DNA from: Pseudomonas phage EL
Sequence record: AJ697969.1
Strand: one strand, 5' to 3'
DNA: 64,000 bases
In this document: positions 1,943 to 17,871 of the stretch, piece by piece
How the letters are laid out: each line of letters begins with the position of its first letter
How positions within the stretch are numbered: position 1 is the first letter of the stretch
Position numbers and translations under genes: made by a program
The notes under the pieces: generated by a model
What the model saw: only the letters and a program-made list of their open reading frames with translations
Database searches by the model: none
What the model was told of the DNA's origin: nothing

Positions 1943-3619
1943 ATGTCTCAAACGCTACTGGTACATGGTAAAGATGCCCAAGGAATCATTAAACAGGTCT
2001 TGAGTGAGGTGTATGACGCCGTCACTTCGACCATGGGTCCGAATGGTCAGTTGGTGATGATCAAGAATGGGGTCTCCACCAAGACCACCAAGGATGGGGT
2101 GACGGTAGCCCGTTCCATTCGCTTTGCAGATGAAGCCCATGAATTGGTGAACCGGGTAATTACCGAGCCGGCTACGAAGACCGATGAGGAATGCGGGGAT
2201 GGCACTACCACCACCATCATGCTGACCCATGCGCTCTATCACCTGTTCAAGGACTTCCCAGGTTTCCAACACCACCGGAACATTGAAGACTTGGTAGAGC
2301 GGGTTATCCAACGTTTGGAATCCATGGCGATTCGGGTGGAAGTGGATGACCCTCGGTTGTATCAAGTGGCCCTGACCTCGTCTAACCAGGATGAAAAGCT
2401 CGCCCGACTGGTTAGTGAGCTCTATGCGAATAACAAAGGGAGTTATCCGGATATTGAACTCAAGGAAGGGGTCAACTTCGAAGACCAGATCGAACAAACT
2501 ACAGGGCGCACTATCCGTATGTTCTACGCGAATCCCTGGTTTGCGAAAGGCCACCAAGGGGGTGTGACAGAATTGACGGGGTTTACGGCGTTCGTTATCG
2601 ATCGTCGGATTGACAAGGAAGACACCCAGAAGTTGATTGATGGGGTGAATCACCTTGTGAAAACTCACAAACAACACCTGGCCCTTCCCATCCTGCTGAT
2701 TGCACGAAGTTTCGAAGAAGCCGCTAACTCGACCCTGATGCAATTGAATGCGGCGCACCCAACCCTGGTAGAAGACGGACGTCCTTGGTTAATCCCGTTG
2801 AGTACGCCGGTAGGTGGTGCAATTGGGACCTCTGAACTGCAAGACATCGCGGTCATGCTGAACGCCCCTATGCTCAGTGACGTAGCGGACCTGACCAAGT
2901 TGGATACCCATTCGATCAATGGCCAACACGGCCAACTGGAACTGGGGGGCAATCGGTCTATCCTGAAGAGTACCACACCTAAGGATGAAGACCGGATCGA
3001 ACAACATGCTCGGGGTATTGAGGAACTGTTGGAGGGGTTTAGCCTCAGCGATAAGTTCTCTGTACGCGCCCGGTACAACGAACGGCGTATTCGGACCCTA
3101 CGGGGTAAGTTGATCACCATTTCCGTAGGCGGCGAAACCTATTCTGAAGTCAAGGAACGGGTAGACCGGTACGAGGATGTGGTGAAAGCCATTCGTTCCG
3201 CCTTGGAGAACGGCATCCTTCCTGGCGGTGGCGTATCCCTGGTTAAGGCGGTCTTCGGTACGATCAAGGAAGGCCTCGAAGATAAAGACCAGAGCGCTGA
3301 GTTTGCTAAGCGGTATATCAACTCAGGCATTGCCAATGAGTTGATGCGACTGTCCACTATTCAGCATAAGCTGTTGTTCAAGGACACGGCGCTGTATAAG
3401 GAAAATGGGAGTTTCCATTTTAATGATGATTGGCTCAATACACCGACCGTCATGAATCTGGCAACTGGTGAGATTGGTACCCCGGAGGGATTGGGTATTT
3501 ATGACACCGCGTATGCCTCTATCACTGCGCTGAAAGGCGGACTCCAAACCGCTAAGATCTTGGCCACTACGAAGACACTGATCCTAGGGGAGAAGTTGTC
3601 GGCGGTTAAGGTGCGGTAA
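1943..3619 (+). CDS. GroEL-like (Cpn60) chaperonin, phage-encoded
   Basis: 558 aa. N-terminal region aligns with GroEL (TMGPNGQLVMI.., ..TKDGVTVARSI..). Canonical ATP-site motif GDGTTT (GDGTTTTIMLTHAL). GGAG SD. No GroES-like ORF adjacent. Confidence 0.85.
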   Translation: MSQTLLVHGKDAQGIIKQVLSEVYDAVTSTMGPNGQLVMIKNGVSTKTTKDGVTVARSIRFADEAHELVNRVITEPATKTDEECGDGTTTTIMLTHALYHLFKDFPGFQHHRNIEDLVERVIQRLESMAIRVEVDDPRLYQVALTSSNQDEKLARLVSELYANNKGSYPDIELKEGVNFEDQIEQTTGRTIRMFYANPWFAKGHQGGVTELTGFTAFVIDRRIDKEDTQKLIDGVNHLVKTHKQHLALPILLIARSFEEAANSTLMQLNAAHPTLVEDGRPWLIPLSTPVGGAIGTSELQDIAVMLNAPMLSDVADLTKLDTHSINGQHGQLELGGNRSILKSTTPKDEDRIEQHARGIEELLEGFSLSDKFSVRARYNERRIRTLRGKLITISVGGETYSEVKERVDRYEDVVKAIRSALENGILPGGGVSLVKAVFGTIKEGLEDKDQSAEFAKRYINSGIANELMRLSTIQHKLLFKDTALYKENGSFHFNDDWLNTPTVMNLATGEIGTPEGLGIYDTAYASITALKGGLQTAKILATTKTLILGEKLSAVKVR

Positions 3620-3781: not shown

Positions 3782-4411
3782 ATGGCTTCAAACCTTCCAA
3801 TCCAAACGATCTTCCTCGACAAATTCGTCGAGTTCAACAAAGACCGCTACAAAGACCAGGCGGAAATGCTCGCCCTCTTTGACGGCCTGACCCTCGCGGA
3901 CATCACGATCTCCGACATCACCGCCGACGGCGCCAACCCCGAGCTGCAAAGCGCCACGGTCACCTCTGTGAGCCGCAACTTCAAAGGTGTCGAACAAAAA
4001 TGGCTCCCGGCGAACATCAACACTCCGTTCGCCTTCGTGGTGGTGAACAAAGGCGCTCCCCTGACCGGCGAAGACCAACTGGCCGAGCAGACCACCCCGG
4101 GTGCCTACGTTTACCTGGTCGGTGAAGGCGAAGAAGCGGTTCAACGCGTGGGCCTGGTGCTGGCTTCCACCACCACCACTGAAACCCAAGCCGCCGACGC
4201 CCTGGCGCTGTTCAAGGCCAACTTCGAATACGTCCTGGACGACGCCGATGTCGATACTGCCACCGCCAAGGTGCTCAAGGTAACCACCAACCCGTTCACC
4301 CGCGGCGAGCTCGTGTACGAAATTGGTAAGGCTCCGATCATCGAGATTCCGGAAACTGACTACGGTCGTCTGGAATTCAAAGAAATCGTTCAACCCGAAC
4401 CCCAACCGTAA
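3782..4411 (+). CDS. hypothetical protein, GC3-rich; paralogue of the 16098-16691 product
   Basis: 209 aa. N-terminus IFLDKFVEFNKDRYKD..LTLADITISD matches LFLERFIAFNKERYSD..LTLDNTTLSD of the minus-strand ORF 16098-16691. Codons are strongly G/C-ending, unlike its neighbours. AGAGGATAAAGCAATG SD-like. Confidence 0.7.
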   Translation: MASNLPIQTIFLDKFVEFNKDRYKDQAEMLALFDGLTLADITISDITADGANPELQSATVTSVSRNFKGVEQKWLPANINTPFAFVVVNKGAPLTGEDQLAEQTTPGAYVYLVGEGEEAVQRVGLVLASTTTTETQAADALALFKANFEYVLDDADVDTATAKVLKVTTNPFTRGELVYEIGKAPIIEIPETDYGRLEFKEIVQPEPQP

Positions 4412-4448: not shown

Positions 4449-4566
4449 TTTACCTCTCTTCGTACCTCATTTCAATTCCAGTGAATTTCAAATCTACATC
4501 ATCAGTGTGAGCCAGGGGCAATAAAAGTTCACGGATGAATGAATTCTCTTGCAACTGGTGCTTTAA

Positions 4567-7700: not shown

Positions 7701-8201
7701 ATGAAAGGTACCCTACCCCATTACCAGATCAGAATTATCGCTAGAAGTGCCTTTACAGACGATTTAAAGGAGAGACTCAAACCACTGTATGAAAACCTCT
7801 TTCACCACGAACTCCATCTCGTCATTGGTACTAAAACAACCCGTAAGCTGTTTAAACCCTCCGCCCGTAAAAATCCCCACCCCTCCGTTATTGAGAAACG
7901 GTACGAAGACTTCTTCAAAGTAACCGACAAGATAGTACTCGTTACTCACTTGGGAGAAGCCGTGGGATATCTGGCGGTGGTTAAGAACAAGATCACCTCA
8001 CTCTTTGTTGAAGAAGACTTCCGGAAGCTAGGCTTAGGGCGGATCATGGTGTCCAAGTTACAACGGGGTGGACATCCTGTGAACCGGTTCCTCTACGTTC
8101 AATGCTTTACCCAGAATACAGCTGGTATCAACTTCTACCGGAAAGTTGGGTTTAAGGAAATTGACAGAGGAGAGATCTACACGGTTTTGTTAATGGAATA
8201 A
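7701..8201 (+). CDS. GNAT-family N-acetyltransferase
   Basis: 166 aa. GNAT motif A (FRKLGLGRIMVSKL, i.e. R-x-x-G-x-G) and motif B-like FYRKVGFKEI. Confidence 0.65.
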   Translation: MKGTLPHYQIRIIARSAFTDDLKERLKPLYENLFHHELHLVIGTKTTRKLFKPSARKNPHPSVIEKRYEDFFKVTDKIVLVTHLGEAVGYLAVVKNKITSLFVEEDFRKLGLGRIMVSKLQRGGHPVNRFLYVQCFTQNTAGINFYRKVGFKEIDRGEIYTVLLME

Positions 8202-8209
8202 ACACCGTA

Positions 8210-8258
8210 CTAGGAGTAGCCCATAAGGGCTACTCCTAGGGGTGTATTTTATTTTTGT
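8210..8258. terminator. bidirectional rho-independent terminator between convergent genes
   Basis: ctaggagtagccc ataa gggctactcctag followed by a T-rich run. Lies between the GNAT gene (+) and the Kelch gene (-). Confidence 0.65.
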
Positions 8259-8259
8259 T

Positions 8260-9186
8260 TCAAAAGAAGCGGTAGATATCACGGTAGCGTCCTGCTTGGT
8301 AGTAATCTCCTGATCCAATGGTGGAGGAATTAACACCCCCTACCAGGTAAATCCCACTGTCATCCGTGAGCATCTCAAAGGCATACCGTTTAGTTACCGT
8401 GGTCATTTGCTTGTACCAACGGTCTTTCAGTATGTCGTAAATATGGAACACGATGTAACCGTTTTCAACACCACAGAGAATCAGGAACTGTTTCCACGAA
8501 GTCCCCCCAGTCCAACTACTGGCAATAGGTGCTTCTGTTACCGTTCTCCAGGTGTTGGTAACGGGATCGTATTCCCTGACCAATCTTGACGTACCCGCGG
8601 GGTCGTTCCATCCCCCGAATACATAGATCTTTCCATTGAACTGTCCGATGTAATGCCCATTGAGCGCCATCGGCATATCCGCTTTACGGGTCCAGACGTT
8701 GGTGGTGGTGTCATACTGGTGGTTGAGGGCTGTGGGTTTATTGGTACTCCCCATGTAACCCCCCATGCAGAAGATCGTCTTATCATCCAGGGTAATACAC
8801 CGACCTTGTCCTCGGGCTCCATCCGGGAGGTTATTCAAGTTCGTTGAAGACCCTGTTGAAGGATTCAATTTCCACACGTGACTCACATAGTTCCCATTAT
8901 TACCGGTAATACCCCAGAAGGAACTGTTGCAGTAACACCCGCCACTCCAGGCCCATACGGAGATATTCCCGGTAGTGGCCCACGTACGGGTGGTAAAGTC
9001 ATAACGGGTATACGTCTGTTGTTGACCCCCACCGGCAAACTGACCTCCGAAGATATGAATCTTCCCTCCACCGATACCCGCACTGAAGTTAGCAATACCG
9101 TTGAAAGGAACTTGAGTCACCCATTCCATTCGTCCCAGAATGTAGGGGTTATCATCAGAAAGGGTAAATAGTTGACTCTCTAACAT
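8260..9186 (-). CDS. Kelch-repeat beta-propeller protein (tail-fibre module)
   Basis: 308 aa. Repeated Kelch-like blades (IHIFGG, IYVFGGW, YDPVTNTW, IYLVGG) with Gly-Gly and Trp/Tyr spacing. Confidence 0.7.
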   Translation of the reverse strand: MLESQLFTLSDDNPYILGRMEWVTQVPFNGIANFSAGIGGGKIHIFGGQFAGGGQQQTYTRYDFTTRTWATTGNISVWAWSGGCYCNSSFWGITGNNGNYVSHVWKLNPSTGSSTNLNNLPDGARGQGRCITLDDKTIFCMGGYMGSTNKPTALNHQYDTTTNVWTRKADMPMALNGHYIGQFNGKIYVFGGWNDPAGTSRLVREYDPVTNTWRTVTEAPIASSWTGGTSWKQFLILCGVENGYIVFHIYDILKDRWYKQMTTVTKRYAFEMLTDDSGIYLVGGVNSSTIGSGDYYQAGRYRDIYRFF

Positions 9187-9200
9187 GAAGCCGCTCCTAA

Positions 9201-9223
9201 AGAGAGGGAGTTAATCCCTCTCT
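9201..9223 (-). terminator. intra-operon hairpin
   Basis: agagaggga gttaa tccctctct perfect inverted repeat between two minus-strand genes. Confidence 0.4.
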
Positions 9224-9231
9224 TACTGATT

Positions 9232-9915
9232 TCAGTTCAACACAAACAAAGGACCCGGAACGGAAGGGAGTTCCTCTGCGACGGTGGCTGCTTCGGCTCT
9301 ATCCATAAGGGACCATATCGTTTCCAGTCCTTCCTGGATACGAGAAGTCACTTCATTGGACAAGTCAATGGTTTCTTGAGCGGTCAGAGAAAGCGTTACA
9401 CCTTCCTTGGTACGAATAGAAGCGGAGAAGGGTTTCTCCTCACGCAATGCTTCTTTCGCCTGGATACTCAAGGCCGTCAAATGGATTCGGTGGGTGGATT
9501 CGATCAAGAGGGTGTGGGCCGTCTCCCCGAATCGCACTTCCATGCCTGTGTAGAACGCCGCTGCAATCACATTCTGGATTTCATTCTTACGAATGTCCTT
9601 AGCGGATCGGAGGCGTTCTGCGACTTCCTCAGGGGTAAAATCCCGAGTGGTCCACTGCTGGGTCCAATACCCATCAATCTGTTTAGGGGGAAGTTCAACC
9701 GGTACATCCCCGGCGGGTGGCTGGGTCAATTGAACGACAGCCATCAGGAAGGGTTCTCCTTCCAAGGCACTGGCTTGTAGCTTACTGGGAATGGGCCAGT
9801 CAGGGAACTTCTTCCGAACATCCTCAATGTAAAGAGGATATTCCCCCGTACGCGTGTCAATCAAGGCGGTGCTTTCATACACCACAGTTACCCTATCCAT
9901 ACTCATTCTCCTCAT
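9232..9915 (-). CDS. hypothetical protein in fibre operon (possible fibre assembly or adaptor protein)
   Basis: 227-aa ORF. Likely start at MSMDRV a few codons inside. Assignment is by operon position only. Confidence 0.5.
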   Translation of the reverse strand: MRRMSMDRVTVVYESTALIDTRTGEYPLYIEDVRKKFPDWPIPSKLQASALEGEPFLMAVVQLTQPPAGDVPVELPPKQIDGYWTQQWTTRDFTPEEVAERLRSAKDIRKNEIQNVIAAAFYTGMEVRFGETAHTLLIESTHRIHLTALSIQAKEALREEKPFSASIRTKEGVTLSLTAQETIDLSNEVTSRIQEGLETIWSLMDRAEAATVAEELPSVPGPLFVLN

Positions 9916-11417
9916 TACGTGATTTTAATCCGATACCCTTGGGAACCGCCAAAGAGGTAGAGGGCTTGGTTGTAGTTCACCCCCCACGCACTCGTAGCAA
10001 CACCCGAGCCCAAACTTCCCAATAGCACCCACTTGTTCAACCGAGGTTCAAAATACTGAATTGGTTGATCATTAACACTCCCCGCAATCGCGTAGAGTTC
10101 TCCATTGTTCCCCAGTACAAAGGCTGCACCAACTGGGATACCAGGAAGAGTCACCGTTGTCCAGGTGTTCGTAGCCGGGTTATACTGGTACATCCCAGGG
10201 TTGTTCGCCCCCGCCACTACCCCACCAATAACACTCACCTTCCCTTGGTAAACCATTACCGTAAAGTCAGAACAATCTCCACTCTCAGCGAAGGCCTTAA
10301 GGACAGTGTGGGTATTGGCAACAGGATCGTACGCGATCAAGAAGCCTTTATTCGTGGTGGGTGTTCCTGACTGTACCCCGCAGATGTACACCTTCCCATT
10401 GAGATAAACCGCTCCACCTGTCAGCGGAGTCAGGGGCATATTAGGTAAACGGGTAACGATGTTCGTAGTGGGATTATACCCGTACGCATCATTCGCAGCG
10501 CCTCCTAGGAAGTAAAGAACATCCTTACCATCAGAAACCAGGATGGAGTTCTTCCGGGGGGGATTGGTAGGCCCTGTTGGACTCAGGGTTTCAAGTACCC
10601 GGGTTTCAAAGTTAACCCGACGGAACTCTTTGGTAGCGGTCTCTACCCCACCGTAGTAGTAAATATGGTTTCCATGGACACATCCCCGTCCGGTATTGAA
10701 TAACAATGAACCCGGCCAGTTATCCATCGCCTCACTCTGACCTTCAATAAACGGGTACGTCCCCTTGGCATACAGAATAGGGCGCCATCCCTGGGTAGGG
10801 ACTTCAGAATCACTGGCAGAGTACGTGACATTCCTAATGGTGTACCACCCCCGATACGCTTGAGTGGTACCGGGTTCATTACCCGTAATGTCTTTACCCC
10901 AGTTGGTATTCCCGTCAGTATTCCCACCACTGGCCGCTTGATTCATCCCCAGTTCTGCATCCGTGAACCGAGTGGGCCAGTTGAATCCATTGGGATCCGA
11001 TACATGGACGTTATACAACAACCGGTCCCATTCAGACGTTGCTGTATTGCCATCACTCCCCATGGTCAAGAGACCTACGGTGTAAATAACCCCCCGGTAC
11101 CGTAGCTCATAGCTCCCTGTCCGTAGACCGGCTTGGGTCAACAGAATACGCCGAACATTATTCCGGATCGGCATTTGAGGAATGTAACAGGTTTCATTGT
11201 GGTTCGAAAACTTCAACCACGGTTTGCCTTCATTGATCACTTTACCAAAGGCAATCCCAGTGAGTTTCGCTAAATCCTCGTAACCAAACAATTCCGTTGC
11301 AGGAGTAATCCCGTACCATCCTTGGGCAGGACTACCTGCTTTCAGTTTAGAAGGCCCCGGATAAGGATCGTCCGGAAAGGCATTCGCGGTCGATGTAAAG
11401 AGTAACGCTTCTATCAT
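9915..11417 (-). CDS. fibre-associated protein with C-terminal Kelch-type beta-propeller
   Basis: 500 aa. C-terminal blades IYYYGG, LYFLGG, VYICG, YAIAGS, LYLFGG, YDPVANTHT. N-terminal ~250 aa unknown. Confidence 0.65.
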   Translation of the reverse strand: MIEALLFTSTANAFPDDPYPGPSKLKAGSPAQGWYGITPATELFGYEDLAKLTGIAFGKVINEGKPWLKFSNHNETCYIPQMPIRNNVRRILLTQAGLRTGSYELRYRGVIYTVGLLTMGSDGNTATSEWDRLLYNVHVSDPNGFNWPTRFTDAELGMNQAASGGNTDGNTNWGKDITGNEPGTTQAYRGWYTIRNVTYSASDSEVPTQGWRPILYAKGTYPFIEGQSEAMDNWPGSLLFNTGRGCVHGNHIYYYGGVETATKEFRRVNFETRVLETLSPTGPTNPPRKNSILVSDGKDVLYFLGGAANDAYGYNPTTNIVTRLPNMPLTPLTGGAVYLNGKVYICGVQSGTPTTNKGFLIAYDPVANTHTVLKAFAESGDCSDFTVMVYQGKVSVIGGVVAGANNPGMYQYNPATNTWTTVTLPGIPVGAAFVLGNNGELYAIAGSVNDQPIQYFEPRLNKWVLLGSLGSGVATSAWGVNYNQALYLFGGSQGYRIKIT

Positions 11418-11481
11418 GATGACTTATACCCCAAAAAGAATACCAGGGAGACCCCGTAGAGCCCCCCTGGTAGTCATACTG

Positions 11482-14400
11482 TTAAGGAACAACAGCCCCC
11501 AACGCACCAATCCATTTGGTTCCATTCCAGGTAAAGACGTAGACCAGTTCAGATCCACTGACGGATGGGGGAGTTCCGTTATGCCACACCAAGGGTGTTG
11601 CATCCTTACCAGCGAAGGTCACAACACCCGCTCCGCCGGTGACATTAACCGTCAGGACCATCCCACGTACCGGGGCTTTAGGTCCATCAGCAATCACCAT
11701 TTGCTTACCCCCCGCCGCGGTGTTATTGATCTGGATGTACTGATCCACCAACGGATTGATTTCCCCACTGGTCGTAAAGACCTTAATCGGCAAATCATAG
11801 CGGTCAAAGGTGAGATCCAACTCCTTCCATTCAGGAATATCCGTACCGGCACGGAAGACCCGAACGTACTGTTTACCATCCTTGGCTTGGAGGTCTTCAA
11901 TACCCTTCGGAAACTCAATAGCTTTCCATTCGGTACCGTCACCTTCTGCATTGACAGCCTGGGCGTAATACGACCCTGGAACCGCATTCGGTACGGGACC
12001 AATAGGGAGGGGGACCCAACGGTTACCCAACCGGACAACCCGGCCTTCAGACTCCATGGGGGAATTGACATCACCCGCCACCAAACGCCCCCACAGGACC
12101 CAACCCCGATCAACGGTCTTGTAGAACACATTGAAGGTCTCAGAGACTGCCCAGTCACCGACTCGACCACTGAAGGCATCCGAAGGTGCGTCTACACCCG
12201 GCGGCAACGTAAGCCACCGGCTGCCTTGCTCACCCTGAATACCGGGTTTCCCTTGAGGTCCGGGAGGACCGTCACCCCCGGTCTTACCGGTTTGACCGCG
12301 CCATTCACCGGTTTCACGCCAGGCGTTAGTCGACGTACTCCAGATGGCTAGGGTGTTGGACTCCGCCAGGTAATACGCATCCCCCGCAACCCCCGCAGGA
12401 ATAGCCGCTTGTAAAGCTGCCAGGTTCGCATAATCCCCTTTAATGGGTACCGTAGGACCTTCGGGGCCTTGTTCACCCCGTTCCCCGTTCTTACCCGGTT
12501 CACCCCGGAAATCAAACCCAGGACTCCACTCGCGCTCATCATTCACGAAATACGTTAAATGATTCTCCAGAACGAGGATAGCGTCACCTTGCTTATAACC
12601 ACCTGACGCAGGCAGTTCCGCCAAGGTGGGTACCACATCCACCATGTTCAACCCAGCACCGGGAGCGCCATCACTCCCTGGCATGGACACCGGACCCACG
12701 TTATCCCAACGAGTTCCGGTATTCACCCAGAGGTCTTTATTCAGGTCAACGTAGGCTTTACCTTGAGTTTCCTCGTTAATCGGAGGAGGATCGGCATCCG
12801 CAGGTGTCAGGACCTTAATGATGTCCAAGGACTTACCATTCAGGCCATCCTTACCGTCCTCACCATCCTTCCCTTTAAAGACACCCAGATTCGCCCATGC
12901 ATTCGAAATGAATCCATAGATCGCGTTTTCATCACGAACAGCATAGACCCATTGATCTTCAGGATTCGCAGGAAGATCCGCTACTGTGTCAACCACACCC
13001 CGAAGAACAATGTTGGTACCGTCACGACCATGGAGGCTGGCTAGGAACTCCTCTTCACTGCCGGTGTTCCCTTTGGAAATCCAGAGTTCGTACGTGGACT
13101 GGCCATTGATACCATCTTCCCCTTTAAAGGGACCCAGGTCCAACCAGGTCGAACTCGCTGCACTCCATACGTACAACCGAAGGGTGTCTCGTGTCACATA
13201 CCCATCTTGGTTAGCCGGAGGGTTGGGTAAGTTGTCCAGATCAACACGAGTCCCTACAGTCCCCAAGACATTCAGGTTCTCACCGGGTTCGCCTTTCATG
13301 GCCGCCCAGTAATCATCTTCCGTCTTACCTTGGTTCTCGGGTTTATTCAACCAGACCTGAACACTGTTCAGACCACCCGGTCCTGCATCACCCTTTTCCC
13401 CTTTAAACCCCCCCAGCTTCCGCCACGCGCTGTTCAGGTAGATGTACAGGGTATTCTCATCCTGAACCGAATAAACATCCTGTTCTACACCGGGGTTGGG
13501 GAGGTCATCTATGGTCGCTACGGTGTCTTTAACGATCAAATTACGACCGTCAACACCGTTTCTACCATCTTCTCCCTTGAATTGACCCAGAATTACCCAG
13601 TTATTCTCAATCCACATACGGACTGTATTGTCCGCACGAACCGACCAGGCATCCTGTTCAACCGCGTTACTCGGGAGTTCACTGGCCAGGTCTACCGCCC
13701 CTTTCACCACGATACTCTTACCGTCGGTACCGTCCTTACCGTCCTTGCCCTTATACTGACCGACATCAACCCAATCCGTACGGTCTGCAATGTAGATCCA
13801 CAGGTGGCCCGTATCCAACGTCACCCAGCCATGTTGATCAACCGGGTCTTTAGCATTCAGCGCATTACGGTCAGCCACCGTTCCCTGTACCTGAAGGTTA
13901 GCCCCGCGTTCACCCCGAATGGCTTCCTGCCACTCTGTAATGGTTTTGTTCTCGTTACCGGGAATCTTCTTCCAGGTTTCGAACGCATCATCTCCCTGAG
14001 CACCTTTATCTCCTCGTTGGGAAGCCAGGAATTCCTGAAGGGTCTTTTCTTCATTCCCAGGAATCTCTTTCCACAGCTCGAAGGTACTCTTGCCGTCAGG
14101 ACCTCGAATGTTCAAACTTTCCCAGACAAACTCACCCGCTGTTTTACCCGGAACCAGAACATGGATATCATTCCGCCACAGGTAGGCATCTCCGGGTTTA
14201 TTCCCTTCAGGCAGTGGGAGATCGAGGTTGTCAGGCCAAACGCCCAACAGGTTAATCCCCCGTTCCCCTTGCAAGGAACCCGAAGACGCCCATTCGTTAC
14301 CGTTCCATACCCGTAGGGCAAAGTTAACGAAGTACGCGGTACCGATCGGAAGCTCTTGGGTATCAATAGCTTCCAGTTCAGCTTCCGAATTGAGTTTACC

Positions 14401-14622
14401 TTTAAGAACAACCCCTTGAGTTGAGAGGGATTCTAGACTCTCCTTCAACCACCGGGTACGCGCATCCAACACCCGAGCTTGGAAGTTAGCCGCACCCTCG
14501 CCGTTGTCTCCCCCGCGAACTCGTACGTCAGTCACCAAAGCCGGGAGGTGTTCTTCCCATCGAGACTCCTCGACAATCGCTGGTAGTTCACCCGGTGTTA
14601 CTGTTTCATCGCCAATAGCCAT
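11482..14622 (-). CDS. tail fibre protein with collagen-like Gly-X-Y repeats
   Basis: 1046 aa. At least 8 repeats of ~55 aa: a Gly-X-Y run (e.g. KGKDGKDGTDGKS, KGEDGRNGVDGRN, GQTGKTGGDGPPGPQGKPGIQGEQG) followed by a ..V.T..DLP....EQD.Y.V.DENT.Y.Y...AW..LG.FKGE block. N-terminus has the QARVLDARTRWLKE motif shared with the next fibre. Confidence 0.75.
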   Translation of the reverse strand: MAIGDETVTPGELPAIVEESRWEEHLPALVTDVRVRGGDNGEGAANFQARVLDARTRWLKESLESLSTQGVVLKGKLNSEAELEAIDTQELPIGTAYFVNFALRVWNGNEWASSGSLQGERGINLLGVWPDNLDLPLPEGNKPGDAYLWRNDIHVLVPGKTAGEFVWESLNIRGPDGKSTFELWKEIPGNEEKTLQEFLASQRGDKGAQGDDAFETWKKIPGNENKTITEWQEAIRGERGANLQVQGTVADRNALNAKDPVDQHGWVTLDTGHLWIYIADRTDWVDVGQYKGKDGKDGTDGKSIVVKGAVDLASELPSNAVEQDAWSVRADNTVRMWIENNWVILGQFKGEDGRNGVDGRNLIVKDTVATIDDLPNPGVEQDVYSVQDENTLYIYLNSAWRKLGGFKGEKGDAGPGGLNSVQVWLNKPENQGKTEDDYWAAMKGEPGENLNVLGTVGTRVDLDNLPNPPANQDGYVTRDTLRLYVWSAASSTWLDLGPFKGEDGINGQSTYELWISKGNTGSEEEFLASLHGRDGTNIVLRGVVDTVADLPANPEDQWVYAVRDENAIYGFISNAWANLGVFKGKDGEDGKDGLNGKSLDIIKVLTPADADPPPINEETQGKAYVDLNKDLWVNTGTRWDNVGPVSMPGSDGAPGAGLNMVDVVPTLAELPASGGYKQGDAILVLENHLTYFVNDEREWSPGFDFRGEPGKNGERGEQGPEGPTVPIKGDYANLAALQAAIPAGVAGDAYYLAESNTLAIWSTSTNAWRETGEWRGQTGKTGGDGPPGPQGKPGIQGEQGSRWLTLPPGVDAPSDAFSGRVGDWAVSETFNVFYKTVDRGWVLWGRLVAGDVNSPMESEGRVVRLGNRWVPLPIGPVPNAVPGSYYAQAVNAEGDGTEWKAIEFPKGIEDLQAKDGKQYVRVFRAGTDIPEWKELDLTFDRYDLPIKVFTTSGEINPLVDQYIQINNTAAGGKQMVIADGPKAPVRGMVLTVNVTGGAGVVTFAGKDATPLVWHNGTPPSVSGSELVYVFTWNGTKWIGALGAVVP

Positions 14623-14639
14623 TTAAGAAATTCCTCTGA

Positions 14640-16082
14640 TTAAGGGGTAAAAACAAGATGGGTGTTCAATTGACCCACCCGCACGGTGGTCGTTTGAGCG
14701 ACCCCTTTCTTCAACACAATCACGACCCGGAGTTTCAAGGTCTTAGGTGCGCTGGCCAATTCAAGGATTTGGGTATCGAAGATTCCCGAGAGATCCCCTT
14801 GACGCAGAGGGTAATTCAGTTCAGTGTTCTGACCCGAGCGCACAGTTTGGACTTGATCGTTCTGGTAGGTTACTTCCAGTTCCAACCCTACTTGCAAGAC
14901 TGCTTCCGCATCGGTTTGAATCGCCCAACGACCCTGAGCTACCAATTTCATCCCTACGGTCAGGTTTGTAATAGGGAGATCCTGTTCCATTCCCAGGGTC
15001 GGTTGATCACCGGTAGGCGTGCCCGTAAAGGACATTACCTGGTATTCACCCCCCGAAGGGTTGGTTTCCTTGGTAATAGCGACGGTCAAACCGATCAGTC
15101 GATTACCCCCAATACCGGTATTCGAGGCGATCTCAACCGTGGTAATGGTAGCACCTCCCGAATCCCCAGCACTACCATCATTACCGATCAACAAAGGGTT
15201 GGGGTTAATGCTCCCGAAGAAGTGGGCGGTCTCCGGCGGTGTCGTGCTGAACGGGATGTAACTGGTTGGCAAGGTAATGGTATTCTTGAACAGCTTGCTC
15301 ACCGCAGTGGCGACATGGTTACCGATGATCTCGGCTCCTTTGGGGCTTGGGTGTACACCGTCCCCCAGCATGCCCGCCAGCGGCTTATTGACATTACCCG
15401 GCTCTACCATGTCATCCCAGGGGTTAACCACGATAACACCCCGTTTAGGCAGCTCAGAGAGCATCCACAGGTGCACTTGGTAATGAATAGCCAATTGTTC
15501 ATCACTGAGCCCAATAGCGGCTTGTTCTACCGGGGTTTCAGCGATCACAATGACGGTTTTGCCATTGGCCAGCAATGTGGCGTAAATCTCGGAGAGGTTA
15601 TTGATCGTTTCATTGAACGTCTGGTTACGCAGACGGTCATTCCCCGAACCCAAATGGATAATGACATCGAACTTATCCAAGGAAGCCAGGAGTTGGGGAA
15701 GACGTTGGGCTTGTTGGGAGGTAGTATTCCCATCGACACCGGCGTTCATGGCATCCGGGAAGGCTACGGCTCCCTCGGTCTTCGCACTGGTCCAGAAGGC
15801 CAGACCAACGTTACCTTTCACGCACTGGTAAGCCCGGCTATCACCGTATACCACGATATTGCGGTTAAACGGCAACCGGTCATTACTTACCGCATTGACT
15901 TTGGTGGTCAGGGTATTCACTTCTTCTTTCAAATAACGGGTACGAGCGTCCAGCACACGTGCTTGCTTGTTCGCATTGCCGGTGCCTTCTTCGGTGGCTT
16001 CAACCTTGTCATCCGGCATCAGAGCCAGCAAAGGTTCAACCCATCCCGGTTGTTCATTAATCACTACGGGATTGTCAGCCAT
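14640..16082 (-). CDS. tail fibre/spike protein with SGNH (GDSL) hydrolase domain
   Basis: 480 aa. N-terminal KQARVLDARTRYLKE anchor motif. SGNH blocks present: I (IVVYGDSRAY), III (HLGSGNDR) and V (DGVHPSPKG, DxxH). Confidence 0.7.
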   Translation of the reverse strand: MADNPVVINEQPGWVEPLLALMPDDKVEATEEGTGNANKQARVLDARTRYLKEEVNTLTTKVNAVSNDRLPFNRNIVVYGDSRAYQCVKGNVGLAFWTSAKTEGAVAFPDAMNAGVDGNTTSQQAQRLPQLLASLDKFDVIIHLGSGNDRLRNQTFNETINNLSEIYATLLANGKTVIVIAETPVEQAAIGLSDEQLAIHYQVHLWMLSELPKRGVIVVNPWDDMVEPGNVNKPLAGMLGDGVHPSPKGAEIIGNHVATAVSKLFKNTITLPTSYIPFSTTPPETAHFFGSINPNPLLIGNDGSAGDSGGATITTVEIASNTGIGGNRLIGLTVAITKETNPSGGEYQVMSFTGTPTGDQPTLGMEQDLPITNLTVGMKLVAQGRWAIQTDAEAVLQVGLELEVTYQNDQVQTVRSGQNTELNYPLRQGDLSGIFDTQILELASAPKTLKLRVVIVLKKGVAQTTTVRVGQLNTHLVFTP

Positions 16083-16097
16083 GAGAATAAGTCCTGT

Positions 16098-16691
16098 TTA
16101 ATACGTGAGGGTGCCGTCGTAACGGAATTGTCCGTTAAAACGAGGAATGGCGTCGTAATGGCTTTCTACGACAGCGAGAGTACCGGTAACGGTGTTGGAA
16201 TCAATGATAGCCTGAGTGAACTCCCCGTCGAGGGTAATTTCATCATCCGTCAAGTCGTAGTAGCATTTGGCTTTGATCAGGGCTTTAATGTGTTCAGGGT
16301 TACGACTCCCTTTGAACACCAATACCGCACCTTCAATGATATCTTCGTCTCGTTTGACTTGGTAAATACCTTCCACCCCCTGGGTTTGTAAAACGTCCCA
16401 ATCAACCGGATCAGGGGTTTCCAGCATGGAGACCTTATTCTTCACATAATCCGCTGGGAGGTACCGTTGGTTCTTACCGGTCAGTTTACCTTCGGAATCG
16501 ATGTTGACCACCCGAGCAAATTCACCACCTTCTACCTCAACTTTCCTGAGGTCAGAGAGGGTAGTATTGTCCAGGGTGAGTTGTTCTAATACACTAACAA
16601 TGTTCGGTTCATCGGAATAACGTTCTTTATTAAAAGCGATGAACCGTTCCAGAAACAGTAGATCGTTTGGAAAGGCCATGGGCGTGTCCAC
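16098..16691 (-). CDS. hypothetical protein, first gene of fibre operon; paralogue of 3782-4411 product
   Basis: 197 aa. Conserved N-terminal ~45 aa shared with ORF 3782. Codon usage is AT3-rich like the bulk genome, unlike its paralogue. Confidence 0.65.
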   Translation of the reverse strand: MDTPMAFPNDLLFLERFIAFNKERYSDEPNIVSVLEQLTLDNTTLSDLRKVEVEGGEFARVVNIDSEGKLTGKNQRYLPADYVKNKVSMLETPDPVDWDVLQTQGVEGIYQVKRDEDIIEGAVLVFKGSRNPEHIKALIKAKCYYDLTDDEITLDGEFTQAIIDSNTVTGTLAVVESHYDAIPRFNGQFRYDGTLTY

Positions 16692-16859
16692 AGAAGTAGA
16701 TAGAGGGTTCGGTCATTAGACCATAAAATTGGTAAATAAAATAGTACCCAAACCCATATTCTTCACTTACCTGGTTATTTAACTTGAGGTTCTTTTCAAA
16801 CCTACATAATCAGGGTGAAGCACAGACAGAGACCGTTTAACGGTCAAGGAGCCTTGTCA

Positions 16860-17036
16860 ATGAATACCCATCAGGCCAAACAGGGGTTAGCCCAGCGTGT
16901 TGAAACCCTGCGTCAAAAAGCTCGTCGTTATGCCCGTCAGGCGATGTGTTCCCTAGAACCGTCTTACCGGCAACATTACCGTCAACTGAGCTACGAAGCC
17001 AGCCGTATGGCAGATCGCCTTCAACGTCAACTGTGA
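16860..17036 (+). CDS. hypothetical small Arg/Gln-rich helical protein
   Basis: 58 aa from ATG 16860 with AAGGAG SD. Extends to 16815 in frame without SD. Confidence 0.35.
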   Translation: MNTHQAKQGLAQRVETLRQKARRYARQAMCSLEPSYRQHYRQLSYEASRMADRLQRQL

Positions 17037-17074
17037 TTGGTGTTTACCCCCCTTCCCCCACACACAGGTGTGAG

Positions 17075-17305
17075 ATGAGCAACGTTATCGATATGTTCAG
17101 CTGGCGGGACTCGAAGAATAAGCGTTCGAGTCAGTTCTCAGTGCTTCATCGTGAAATCGAAGCACTGTACGTCATTCAGAACCGCGCGCTTCAGGAGATC
17201 GCTTCAGCGGATACGGTCTTGGCGTATGAACAAGCTAAACTCTTCCTGATGGATGTCAGGATTGAAATCTACACCAAGACCATTGCGTTGAGTCAGTGTA
17301 TCTAA
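17075..17305 (+). CDS. hypothetical small protein
   Basis: 76 aa from ATG 17075 with GGTGTGAG SD. Confidence 0.35.
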   Translation: MSNVIDMFSWRDSKNKRSSQFSVLHREIEALYVIQNRALQEIASADTVLAYEQAKLFLMDVRIEIYTKTIALSQCI

Positions 17306-17328
17306 GGACATTTAACGTCCAGTGGTAA

Positions 17329-17350
17329 TCAAGTCTATATTACTTGGGTG
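17329..17350 (+). promoter_or_regulatory. phiKZ-type early promoter-like motif (TCAAGTCTATATTACTTGGGTG)
   Basis: 22 nt identical to 59307-59330. TATATTAC core at 17336-17343, 42 nt upstream of ATG 17392. Extended similarity (GTAATCArGTCTATATTAC) with 18617-18640. Confidence 0.6.
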
Positions 17351-17391
17351 ATTAGGTACACAACATTCATTCCTTTTTAGAGGTTTACACC

Positions 17392-17871
17392 ATGGCTAAA
17401 CAGTCGAACTTCACCATCGCTAACTACAACGCCGTCCTGGAAGCTGTTAAAGCCAACAACGGTTACGTGATCGACACCCACGGTGGTAGCCGTGGACCTT
17501 ATCGTGCTGCTGGTATCGCCGCACTGGTGAAGGACGAAAGGGTTACCCCGGTGCTGCTGTGCCATGGTTCCTACTTCTGCCTGAACTCGCTGCACAAGGA
17601 AGCCGATGGTTCGGTGACCCTCTCCAGCTGGTCGGTCGGTGTTACCATCTTCACCCACCAACACGGTGGGCTGGAAGAAGCGATCCAAGCCTACAACAAG
17701 GAGCAATCCGAGTGGGCGTTGTCGGGTGGTCAACTGATGCATGTACGCATCTTCGACTACACCGACGAAACCGCACCTGTGTTCGGCGAGCCAGTTGATC
17801 TGGCAGGCGAAGTCGTGGGTGCGCTGGCAGCACAAGAGCCGATCGCCAAGGTCGACATCCCTGCTCAATAA
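17392..17871 (+). CDS. hypothetical protein, GC3-rich (early gene)
   Basis: 159 aa. Strong G/C-ending codon bias. Directly downstream of the promoter motif, with SD AGAGG. Confidence 0.65.
   Translation: MAKQSNFTIANYNAVLEAVKANNGYVIDTHGGSRGPYRAAGIAALVKDERVTPVLLCHGSYFCLNSLHKEADGSVTLSSWSVGVTIFTHQHGGLEEAIQAYNKEQSEWALSGGQLMHVRIFDYTDETAPVFGEPVDLAGEVVGALAAQEPIAKVDIPAQ

Follow-up and report, generated by a model that had tools for sequence, protein, structure and literature searches.

The closest described counterparts of the genes considered here, gp153–gp158 of Pseudomonas phage EL, come from fibres that carry carbohydrate esterases and from the virions of other jumbo phages. The six genes occupy positions 8260–16691 of a 64,000-nucleotide stretch of sequence record AJ697969.1, hereafter the window. 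In coliphage G7C, deacetylation of surface polysaccharide is an established step of adsorption, and two Klebsiella prophage fibres have demonstrated esterase activity (PMC12625404, PMC13123978). G7C gp63.1, the Klebsiella prophage SGNH fibres and tail fibres of the P. aeruginosa Migulavirinae all place an SGNH esterase beside carbohydrate-binding modules (CBMs) and have a swappable N-terminal attachment, as gp157 appears to do. No detectable sequence similarity between these proteins and gp157 was seen, and the domain order of gp157 (anchor, SGNH, C-terminal beta-sandwich) differs from that of G7C gp63.1-type proteins.

In Pseudomonas phage phiKZ, the paralogues gp131, gp133, gp134 and gp135 share an N-terminal segment through which they dock, as a helical bundle, at the same sites of the baseplate; they form a hetero-hexamer, and gp131 bears a distal seven-bladed beta-propeller (PMC13250141). 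These proteins are a precedent both for docking at common sites through shared N-termini and for propeller heads on baseplate fibres. The likeness to EL is functional only: neither a tblastn search with the gp155 N-terminal domain nor a profile of the EL anchor finds gp131–gp135, the EL anchor is a different module of about 60 residues, and the EL propeller is a six-bladed Kelch propeller rather than a seven-bladed one. Another phiKZ protein, gp298, is a low-copy, NanM-like Kelch protein of the virion; phage lacking it no longer adsorbs to two wild isolates, though it still adsorbs to PAO1 (PMC12676376). Small and stand-alone, as gp153 is, and likewise from a jumbo phage of P. aeruginosa, gp298 is the best functional precedent for gp153, although its gene, unlike that of gp153, does not lie near fibre genes. 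The phiKZ counterparts of gp155 and gp156 are the virion proteins gp83 and gp146, whose genes are separated by about 70 kb; the EL N-terminal anchor is absent from gp146. For gp154, the relevant proteins are gp27 of Alteromonas phage V22 and gp9 of Alteromonas phage A5, which, like gp154, are about 200 residues long; they carry a C-terminal DUF4376 domain and are encoded downstream of the fibre, and both are needed for fibre maturation (PMC7289586, PMC10579305). gp154 differs from them in its sub-cutoff DUF4376 score and in the presence of gp155 and a hairpin between the fibre gene and its own.

Set against these systems, the gp153–gp158 block is best described as a host-adsorption (fibre) module assembled through the exchange of cassettes, a reading to which we assign a probability of roughly 60%. 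An earlier reading of this DNA, made from the sequence alone (the sequence-only reading), had proposed a receptor-binding operon here. Its observation was largely right, and the receptor-binding interpretation is reasonable and now better grounded; its account of the transcriptional layout fares less well, as described below.

The sequence-only reading had singled out a short motif common to the N-termini of gp156 and gp157. The likeness is real and extends beyond that motif: the N-terminus of gp157 aligns with residues 15–69 of gp156, with 28 of 55 residues identical (51%, E = 1e-11). A profile built from these two N-termini finds only the gp156 and gp157 open reading frames (ORFs) in the window, with no third copy. 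When searched against 1.84 billion representative proteins, the same profile returns 54 proteins, in nearly all of which the match begins at residue 1–4. The top matches are gp156 orthologues of 1000–1270 residues from uncultured jumbo phages, with 33–48% identity and 7–11 beta-units. The remaining proteins are shorter and have unrelated C-termini, in which Pfam recognizes Gp10_C, gp37_trimer, Gp53-like_C, Phage_tail_C_2, CotH, F5/8-type-C, SASA carbohydrate esterase and BNR domains. In a P2-like Klebsiella prophage, the anchor heads a 649-residue protein encoded directly after the baseplate genes gpJ/gpI, in the gpH tail-fibre slot. The proposal of a shared anchor is thereby supported and generalized to many tail-fibre-type proteins. 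Because the segment occupies the very N-terminus of proteins with such diverse tail-fibre-type C-termini, these matches support its interpretation as a portable N-terminal attachment module of fibre-type proteins, an interpretation that is new here. A 124-residue ORF at the end of a paralogue array in a contig from an uncultured relative (L018, 20191–20565) matches gp156 residues 44–123 with 37.5% identity, spanning the first beta-unit and the second half of the anchor, and is perhaps a pseudogene or else a fragment of the anchor that stands alone.

C-terminal to the anchor, gp157 scores well above the Pfam cutoffs for Lipase_GDSL_2 (PF13472; 53.2 bits, cutoff 32.9) and Lipase_GDSL (PF00657; 29.5 bits, cutoff 23.6). 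The catalytic set that had been called complete is indeed all present (GDS at residues 80–82, GVDGN at 115–119, GSGND with Asn148, and DGVH at 241–244), except that block III is not the strict GxND that had been claimed. These blocks align with the same blocks of the esterase 7c2a and are invariant in 28 homologues, and the predicted model of gp157 has the alpha/beta/alpha flavodoxin-like fold of SGNH enzymes. From residue 71 to its end, gp157 is 44% identical to 603-residue Pseudomonas proteins that possess a different N-terminus of about 200 residues and whose genes sit between the tail-tip and internal-virion-protein genes of podophage-like elements of about 40 kb. Otagovirus phages of about 98 kb encode proteins, annotated as lipase or tail fibre, that share 32% identity with the same region. 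The picture suggested by these comparisons, which is new here, is that of an esterase and CBM cassette that moves among Pseudomonas phages and is given a lineage-specific anchor.

Alternatively, gp157 could be a soluble lipase or acyl-esterase made during infection rather than a virion fibre, its N-terminal likeness to gp156 being a remnant of recombination. Such an enzyme would act on host lipids, lipopolysaccharide or the O-acetyl groups of peptidoglycan, from inside or at lysis, or would alter the surface so as to block superinfection. We consider this decidedly unlikely: the anchor is retained at 51% identity under purifying selection and elsewhere always heads tail-fibre-type proteins, the homologues of the core are encoded among podophage virion genes as described above, and the C-terminal domain resembles polysaccharide-binding modules.

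Evidence for cassette exchange also comes from gene order in two contigs of uncultured relatives, L017 (163 kb) and L018 (240 kb). Both carry a gp158-like gene (34–48% identity), an anchor-bearing fibre gene, a DUF4376 gene and an array of paralogues of about 300 residues, in that order, with a DUF1353 gene and a 307-residue Kelch gene preceding the array in L018. The array is the counterpart of gp196–204 of Erwinia phage RisingSun, which are annotated as putative virion structural proteins, and its conserved segment matches gp155 residues 1–86. In neither contig is the gp158-like gene separated from the fibre gene by an esterase gene, or the fibre gene from the chaperone gene by one of the gp155 type. 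Judged from this order, the conserved core of the block, found also in uncultured relatives, is a gp158-like gene, the fibre gp156, the DUF4376 gene gp154 and the small Kelch gene gp153. Because both contigs lack gp157 and gp155 at the equivalent places, these two genes look like insertions in the EL lineage. Both the core and the apparent insertions are new here.

The function of gp158 is possibly that of an adaptor. Its 193-residue product matches proteins of EL-like phages exactly; the 109 residues annotated in the EL record (YP_418191.1) are probably a truncation in the 2005 annotation. RisingSun gp197 and gp201 each consist of a gp158-like domain fused to a gp155-N-like domain, and gp158 and gp155 are therefore likely to be functionally linked. 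The gp158-like domain is a multi-copy module, with five copies in RisingSun, two of them in these fusions. EL itself has a gp158 paralogue, a 209-residue ORF downstream of the GroEL gene (window 3782–4411, plus strand; E = 1.7e-10).

The long fibre gp156 matches the 'tail fiber' family phrog_3904 (E = 5e-214) and is homologous to phiKZ gp146 over residues 80–1045. At least eight tandem units had been claimed for it; iterated hidden Markov model searches recover 9–10 copies of a beta-rich unit of about 47 residues between residues 70 and 775, along with a weaker eleventh. The units share 10–49% pairwise identity and a common invariant tryptophan, and are joined by nine Gly-X-Y runs of 3–9 triplets each. 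The description of gp156 as a collagen-repeat fibre holds in that these runs are present, but they are short, and the protein misses the Pfam Collagen cutoff (PF01391; 16.9 bits, cutoff 27.2), which the homologous fibres of phages D6 and CR9 pass; 'collagen-like linkers' is the fairer term. At the DNA level, where tandem repeats had been suggested as a check, Tandem Repeats Finder reports only 9–10-nucleotide periods over 11482–14622, arising from the Gly-X-Y codons, and a 36-nucleotide junction segment recurs five times at spacings of 174–279 nucleotides. The repeats are thus old and diverged, and have decayed at the DNA level. A sequence search of the PDB with gp156 gave no matches.

gp156 also contains four short 'S-x-Y/F-E-x-W...G' blocks that the sequence-only reading did not mention. 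Most of phiKZ gp145 (L016; phiKZ 147276–152926) consists of short blocks of this kind, 'SAYEIAVxNGFxGTExEW'. In Cronobacter phage CR9 (L011, 7051–11021), the gp156-like collagen fibre has a weak Fibritin_C match (E = 3e-4), and in the Vequintavirinae, genes for a gp156-like collagen fibre and a gp154-like partner directly follow the major capsid protein gene. Fibres of the gp156 type might be neck or head fibres rather than baseplate fibres in some lineages.

gp154 was not taken up in the sequence-only reading. It probably belongs, on the sequence evidence of its homologues, to the DUF4376 chaperone family, an assignment that is new here. Its homologue in phage D6 (33% identity) matches DUF4376 with 55 bits (E = 1.3e-14), and precomputed matches show the domain in the L017 and L018 orthologues. 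Homologues of gp154 occur in 111 phage genomes and, wherever coordinates were compared (D6, CR9, CR8, SSE121, Ea35-70, RAY, PhiEaH1, PCH45, L017 and L018), lie just downstream of a gp156-like fibre gene. DUF4376 proteins have been shown experimentally to be fibre chaperones in the Alteromonas phages V22 and A5 (PMC7289586, PMC10579305). Because of its homologues' DUF4376 domains, the position downstream of the fibre and this precedent, gp154 is probably a fibre chaperone or cap.

Two Kelch proteins had been proposed in the block, and both are confirmed by Pfam scores above the cutoffs and by PDB sequence matches to the Kelch domains of KLHL proteins and KEAP1. Nearly the whole of gp153 is propeller (Kelch_1, 78.2 bits, cutoff 20.1). 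gp155 reaches 46.6 bits for Kelch_6 (cutoff 25.3) and 52.4 for Kelch_KLHDC2 (cutoff 50), and its AlphaFold2 (AF2) model arranges 24 strands in six sets over residues 228–499 into a closed six-bladed propeller, which matches six-bladed Kelch domains with target-normalized Foldseek template modelling scores of 0.6–0.73. The sialic-acid mutarotase NanM/YjhT was considered and rejected as an identity for the EL Kelch proteins, which score 21.6–32.9 bits against TIGR03547 and TIGR03548 (cutoffs 243–256), a generic Kelch similarity.

gp155 is 43% identical to phiKZ gp83 (L005, 7001–8515) over its full length (E = 1e-132), and 55% identical over the N-terminal 225 residues, a likeness that is new here. 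For phages as distantly related as these two, we take 43% to be high, which would point to horizontal exchange or else to a strong constraint imposed by the host. [quoted passage not shown] The statement that Kelch folds are uncommon in phage adhesion modules does not hold for P. aeruginosa jumbo phages, in which propellers occur in phiKZ gp83, gp298 and gp131 and in PA5oct. The PA5oct homologue in virions and the role of gp298 in adsorption are precedents for Kelch virion proteins.

It has to be considered that the Kelch proteins, gp155 especially, are head-associated or ejected virion proteins whose propeller serves protein–protein interactions in the host cell or in the capsid, leaving gp156, with or without gp157, as the sole adhesin. 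phiKZ gp83 is noted as a 'structural head protein' and its gene adjoins the head-protein genes gp84–86, neither gp83 nor any Kelch protein is placed in the phiKZ tail atlas, and most solved Kelch domains bind peptides. gp83 also behaves as near-essential on PAO1, which would not be expected of an accessory adhesin that can be dispensed with. However, the 'head' note is unreliable in that it is also attached to gp145 and gp146, a tail sheath and a tail fibre, and the family of the gp155 N-terminal domain, RisingSun gp196–204, has counterparts adjoining the fibre-chaperone core in L017 and L018. The need for phiKZ gp298 in adsorption, the adhesin gene beside the PA5oct Kelch gene, and the confinement of full-length gp155/gp83 relatives, at 43% identity, to P. 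aeruginosa phages likewise argue for adhesion, and we regard a purely head-associated role as unlikely.

The sequence-only reading had placed all six genes in a single operon between two terminators. No terminator-like hairpin is found upstream of the block in 16692–16815; strong hairpins occur at 8210–8239 and, within the block, at 11441–11472. The former separates the convergent gp153 and acetyltransferase genes and is conserved in an EL-like phage (L001). The latter, together with UUCUUUUU, directly follows gp156, between gp156 and gp155, and is identical in EL-like phages (L001, L002); direct reading of L017 and L018 finds, at the equivalent site after the fibre, a T-run and a hairpin whose sequence differs. 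With its GC-rich stem-loop, U-run and conserved position, 11441–11472 is a predicted Rho-independent terminator. These phages use their own RNA polymerases. Because a strong conserved hairpin lies inside the block and none lies upstream, a single operon is not borne out, and the block is best read as two transcription units or one attenuated unit. The hairpin would either lower transcription of the downstream genes or stabilize the fibre mRNA.

As a host-adsorption module, the block may have arisen and may work as follows. gp157 would have originated as a copy of the fibre's anchor of about 60 residues fused to an SGNH carbohydrate-esterase and CBM-like module, and the gp155 cassette would be a phiKZ gp83-type virion protein in which a family-specific N-terminal domain carries the six-bladed Kelch head. 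The long helix of the shared anchor, probably a coiled coil, would dock gp156 and gp157 oligomers at the same type of baseplate socket or unite them in one helical bundle. In gp157, the CBM-like domain would grip a surface polysaccharide while Ser82 and His244 strip O-acyl groups, most likely O-acetyl groups, and the distal domain of gp156 would bind the receptor, its C-terminus having been folded or capped by gp154. The Kelch proteins would serve as accessory heads for binding, important on some hosts.

Several observations weigh against this reading. No direct evidence was found for gp157, gp153, gp154 or gp158 in EL virions; we infer the virion location of gp157, gp153 and gp158, as we do the docking, the chaperone role and the substrate of the esterase. 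RefSeq names gp157 'lipase' and not 'virion structural protein', and PHROGs places its family under moron/auxiliary genes. gp154 itself scores only 13.8 bits against DUF4376 (E = 0.084), below the cutoff of 25, and in EL both gp155 and the terminator-like hairpin intervene between gp156 and gp154. AF2 models the anchor of gp157 (residues 1–73) with low confidence, apart from predicting its long helix at residues 35–66, and gives the N-terminal 225 residues of gp155 a predicted local distance difference test score below 50, at which fold comparison is impossible; the alignments used for modelling were shallow, with word-indexed homologue searches yielding narrow families only. The RefSeq entries of both phiKZ gp83 and gp146 bear the note 'structural head protein', and the phiKZ cryo-electron microscopy atlas mentions and places neither, so a baseplate location is tentative. 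The head note is a weak locator in itself, since phiKZ gp145 and gp146 are named tail sheath and tail fibre yet carry it.

A final point of this kind is that much of the block is missing from contigs of a phage 97% identical to EL, in conflict with the phiKZ orthologues, which tolerate almost no transposon insertions: published data give one insertion in the 1515 bp of gp83 and none in gp146, against 21 in gp298. At least nine contigs of 6.7–9.7 kb, from Logan assemblies of runs SRR27713903, SRR27710036, SRR27713803 and others (L012, L013 and L014 among them), carry a clean 6,239-bp deletion (window 8318–14556) that removes gp153–gp156. The deletion fuses gp156 codon 22 to gp153 at about codon 292, creating a 39-residue chimeric ORF (P0166), and one variant also lacks 14690–17649, with gp157, gp158 and small divergent genes. 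The same contigs contain an insertion of about 1.29 kb (L012, 8303–9590) encoding a 380-residue IS605-type TnpB (OrfB_IS605 / Cas12f1-like_TNB); it lies at window position ~4496–4503, in the intergenic spacer that follows the gp158 paralogue, where EL has no insertion. The contigs stem from deletion mutants that are viable or, alternatively, from defective sub-populations; viability of the variants would make the block dispensable, unlike its phiKZ orthologues.

These contigs are also the main argument for regarding the block as dispensable accessory cargo, with the essential adsorption apparatus elsewhere and gp153–gp156 widening host range or serving particular environments. The deletion in at least nine contigs and the further loss of gp157 and gp158 speak for it, but the contigs are short and perhaps derive from defective sub-populations carried by wild-type helpers, phiKZ gp146 and gp83 have 0–1 transposon insertions, and purifying selection across isolates acts on each of the six genes; we therefore hold this account improbable. 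Similarly doubtful is a bolder form of the module proposal, in which the duplicated anchor mounts two heads, a binding fibre and a glycan esterase, on one class of socket, perhaps as a branched fibre with an enzymatic arm, built from a mixed bundle like the phiKZ hetero-hexamer, and in which the deletions are viable, so that this nucleus-forming jumbo phage would carry the block as a dispensable, swappable cartridge for host range.

Table 1. Features of the gp153–gp158 block of phage EL and its flanks, in window coordinates (aa, amino acids).
Feature	Position	Strand	Accession	Public name	Description
gp153, 308 aa	8260–9186	−	CAG27247.1	Putative Kelch-like protein	Stand-alone Kelch propeller; Kelch_1 E = 3e-22
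gp154, 224 aa	9232–9906	−			DUF4376-family, probable fibre chaperone or cap, from homologues' DUF4376 matches and position
gp155, 500 aa	9915–11417	−	YP_418188.1	virion structural protein / Putative Kelch-like ECH-associated protein	N-domain aa 1–~225; six-bladed Kelch propeller aa ~228–500
gp156, 1046 aa	11482–14622	−	YP_418189.1	tail fiber protein	Long fibre: anchor aa 1–69; beta-units and Gly-X-Y aa 70–850; C-terminal domain aa 851–1046
gp157, 480 aa	14640–16082	−	YP_418190.1	lipase / Putative GDSL lipase family protein	Esterase fibre: N-terminal anchor, then SGNH esterase, then CBM-like beta-sandwich
gp157 N-terminal anchor domain, aa 1–66	15885–16082	−			Core QARVLDARTRYLKE within predicted long helix aa 35–66
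gp157 SGNH catalytic domain, aa 74–265	15288–15863	−			Ser82, Gly118, Asn148, Asp241, His244
gp157 C-terminal all-beta domain, aa 288–477	14652–15221	−			Likeness to carbohydrate-binding modules
gp158, 193 aa	16098–16679	−			Small protein always preceding the fibre gene; ORF extends to GTG 16691
Bidirectional hairpin	8210–8239	both			−33 kcal/mol; z = −9 (minus strand), −7.6 (plus strand)
Intrinsic-terminator-like hairpin and UUCUUUUU	11432–11472 (hairpin 11441–11472)	−			14-bp stem, −29 kcal/mol, z = −4.3
Divergent intergenic region upstream of gp158	16692–16814 (also given to 16815)				Presumed promoter region

The window is 96.8–98.3% identical at the nucleotide level to seven EL-like P. 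aeruginosa jumbo phages of about 210 kb. All six co-directional minus-strand ORFs described for the block are present, and exact matches among EL or EL-like protein records exist for five of the products. Among relatives, the starts of gp154 and gp158 lie slightly further in, at ATG 9906 and ATG 16679. Compared with phage HHBS47_1, the genes show 13–82 synonymous and 1–21 non-synonymous codon changes each (82 and 19 in gp156). Because synonymous changes far exceed non-synonymous ones in every gene, all six are real genes under purifying selection across isolates. The Kelch, GDSL lipase and tail fibre labels are already part of the public EL annotation. A literature search on EL gp153–gp157 returned nothing relevant, the EL and phiKZ proteome studies lying outside its scope. 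None of the six proteins matches DUF7941, the Goslar fibre-cloud family, in a Pfam copy that may or may not include this model.

Beyond the block, the window contains the gene for the 558-residue GroEL-type chaperonin characteristic of EL (1943–3619, plus strand), about 4.6 kb away and on the opposite strand. A gene for a 166-residue GNAT-type acetyltransferase (7701–8201, plus strand) converges on the block and shares the hairpin at 8210–8239; an acetyltransferase gene thus adjoins the block that encodes a putative deacetylating fibre. A tRNA scan of the window found no tRNA.

Every element of the block has precedent, and only the picture of anchor sharing and cassette insertion, together with the deletion variants, is mildly new; the general understanding of phage receptor-binding modules is unchanged by these results. 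Their significance lies with the EL-like jumbo phages, which are therapy candidates against P. aeruginosa and whose adsorption apparatus is essentially uncharacterized. The two Kelch proteins have relatives in phiKZ and PA5oct that are virion proteins, one of them, a distant relative, with an adsorption phenotype. gp154, as a likely fibre chaperone, would be needed for production of the recombinant fibre, and the substrate of gp157 would point to the receptor glycan. The anchor of about 60 residues could serve to graft new heads onto EL.

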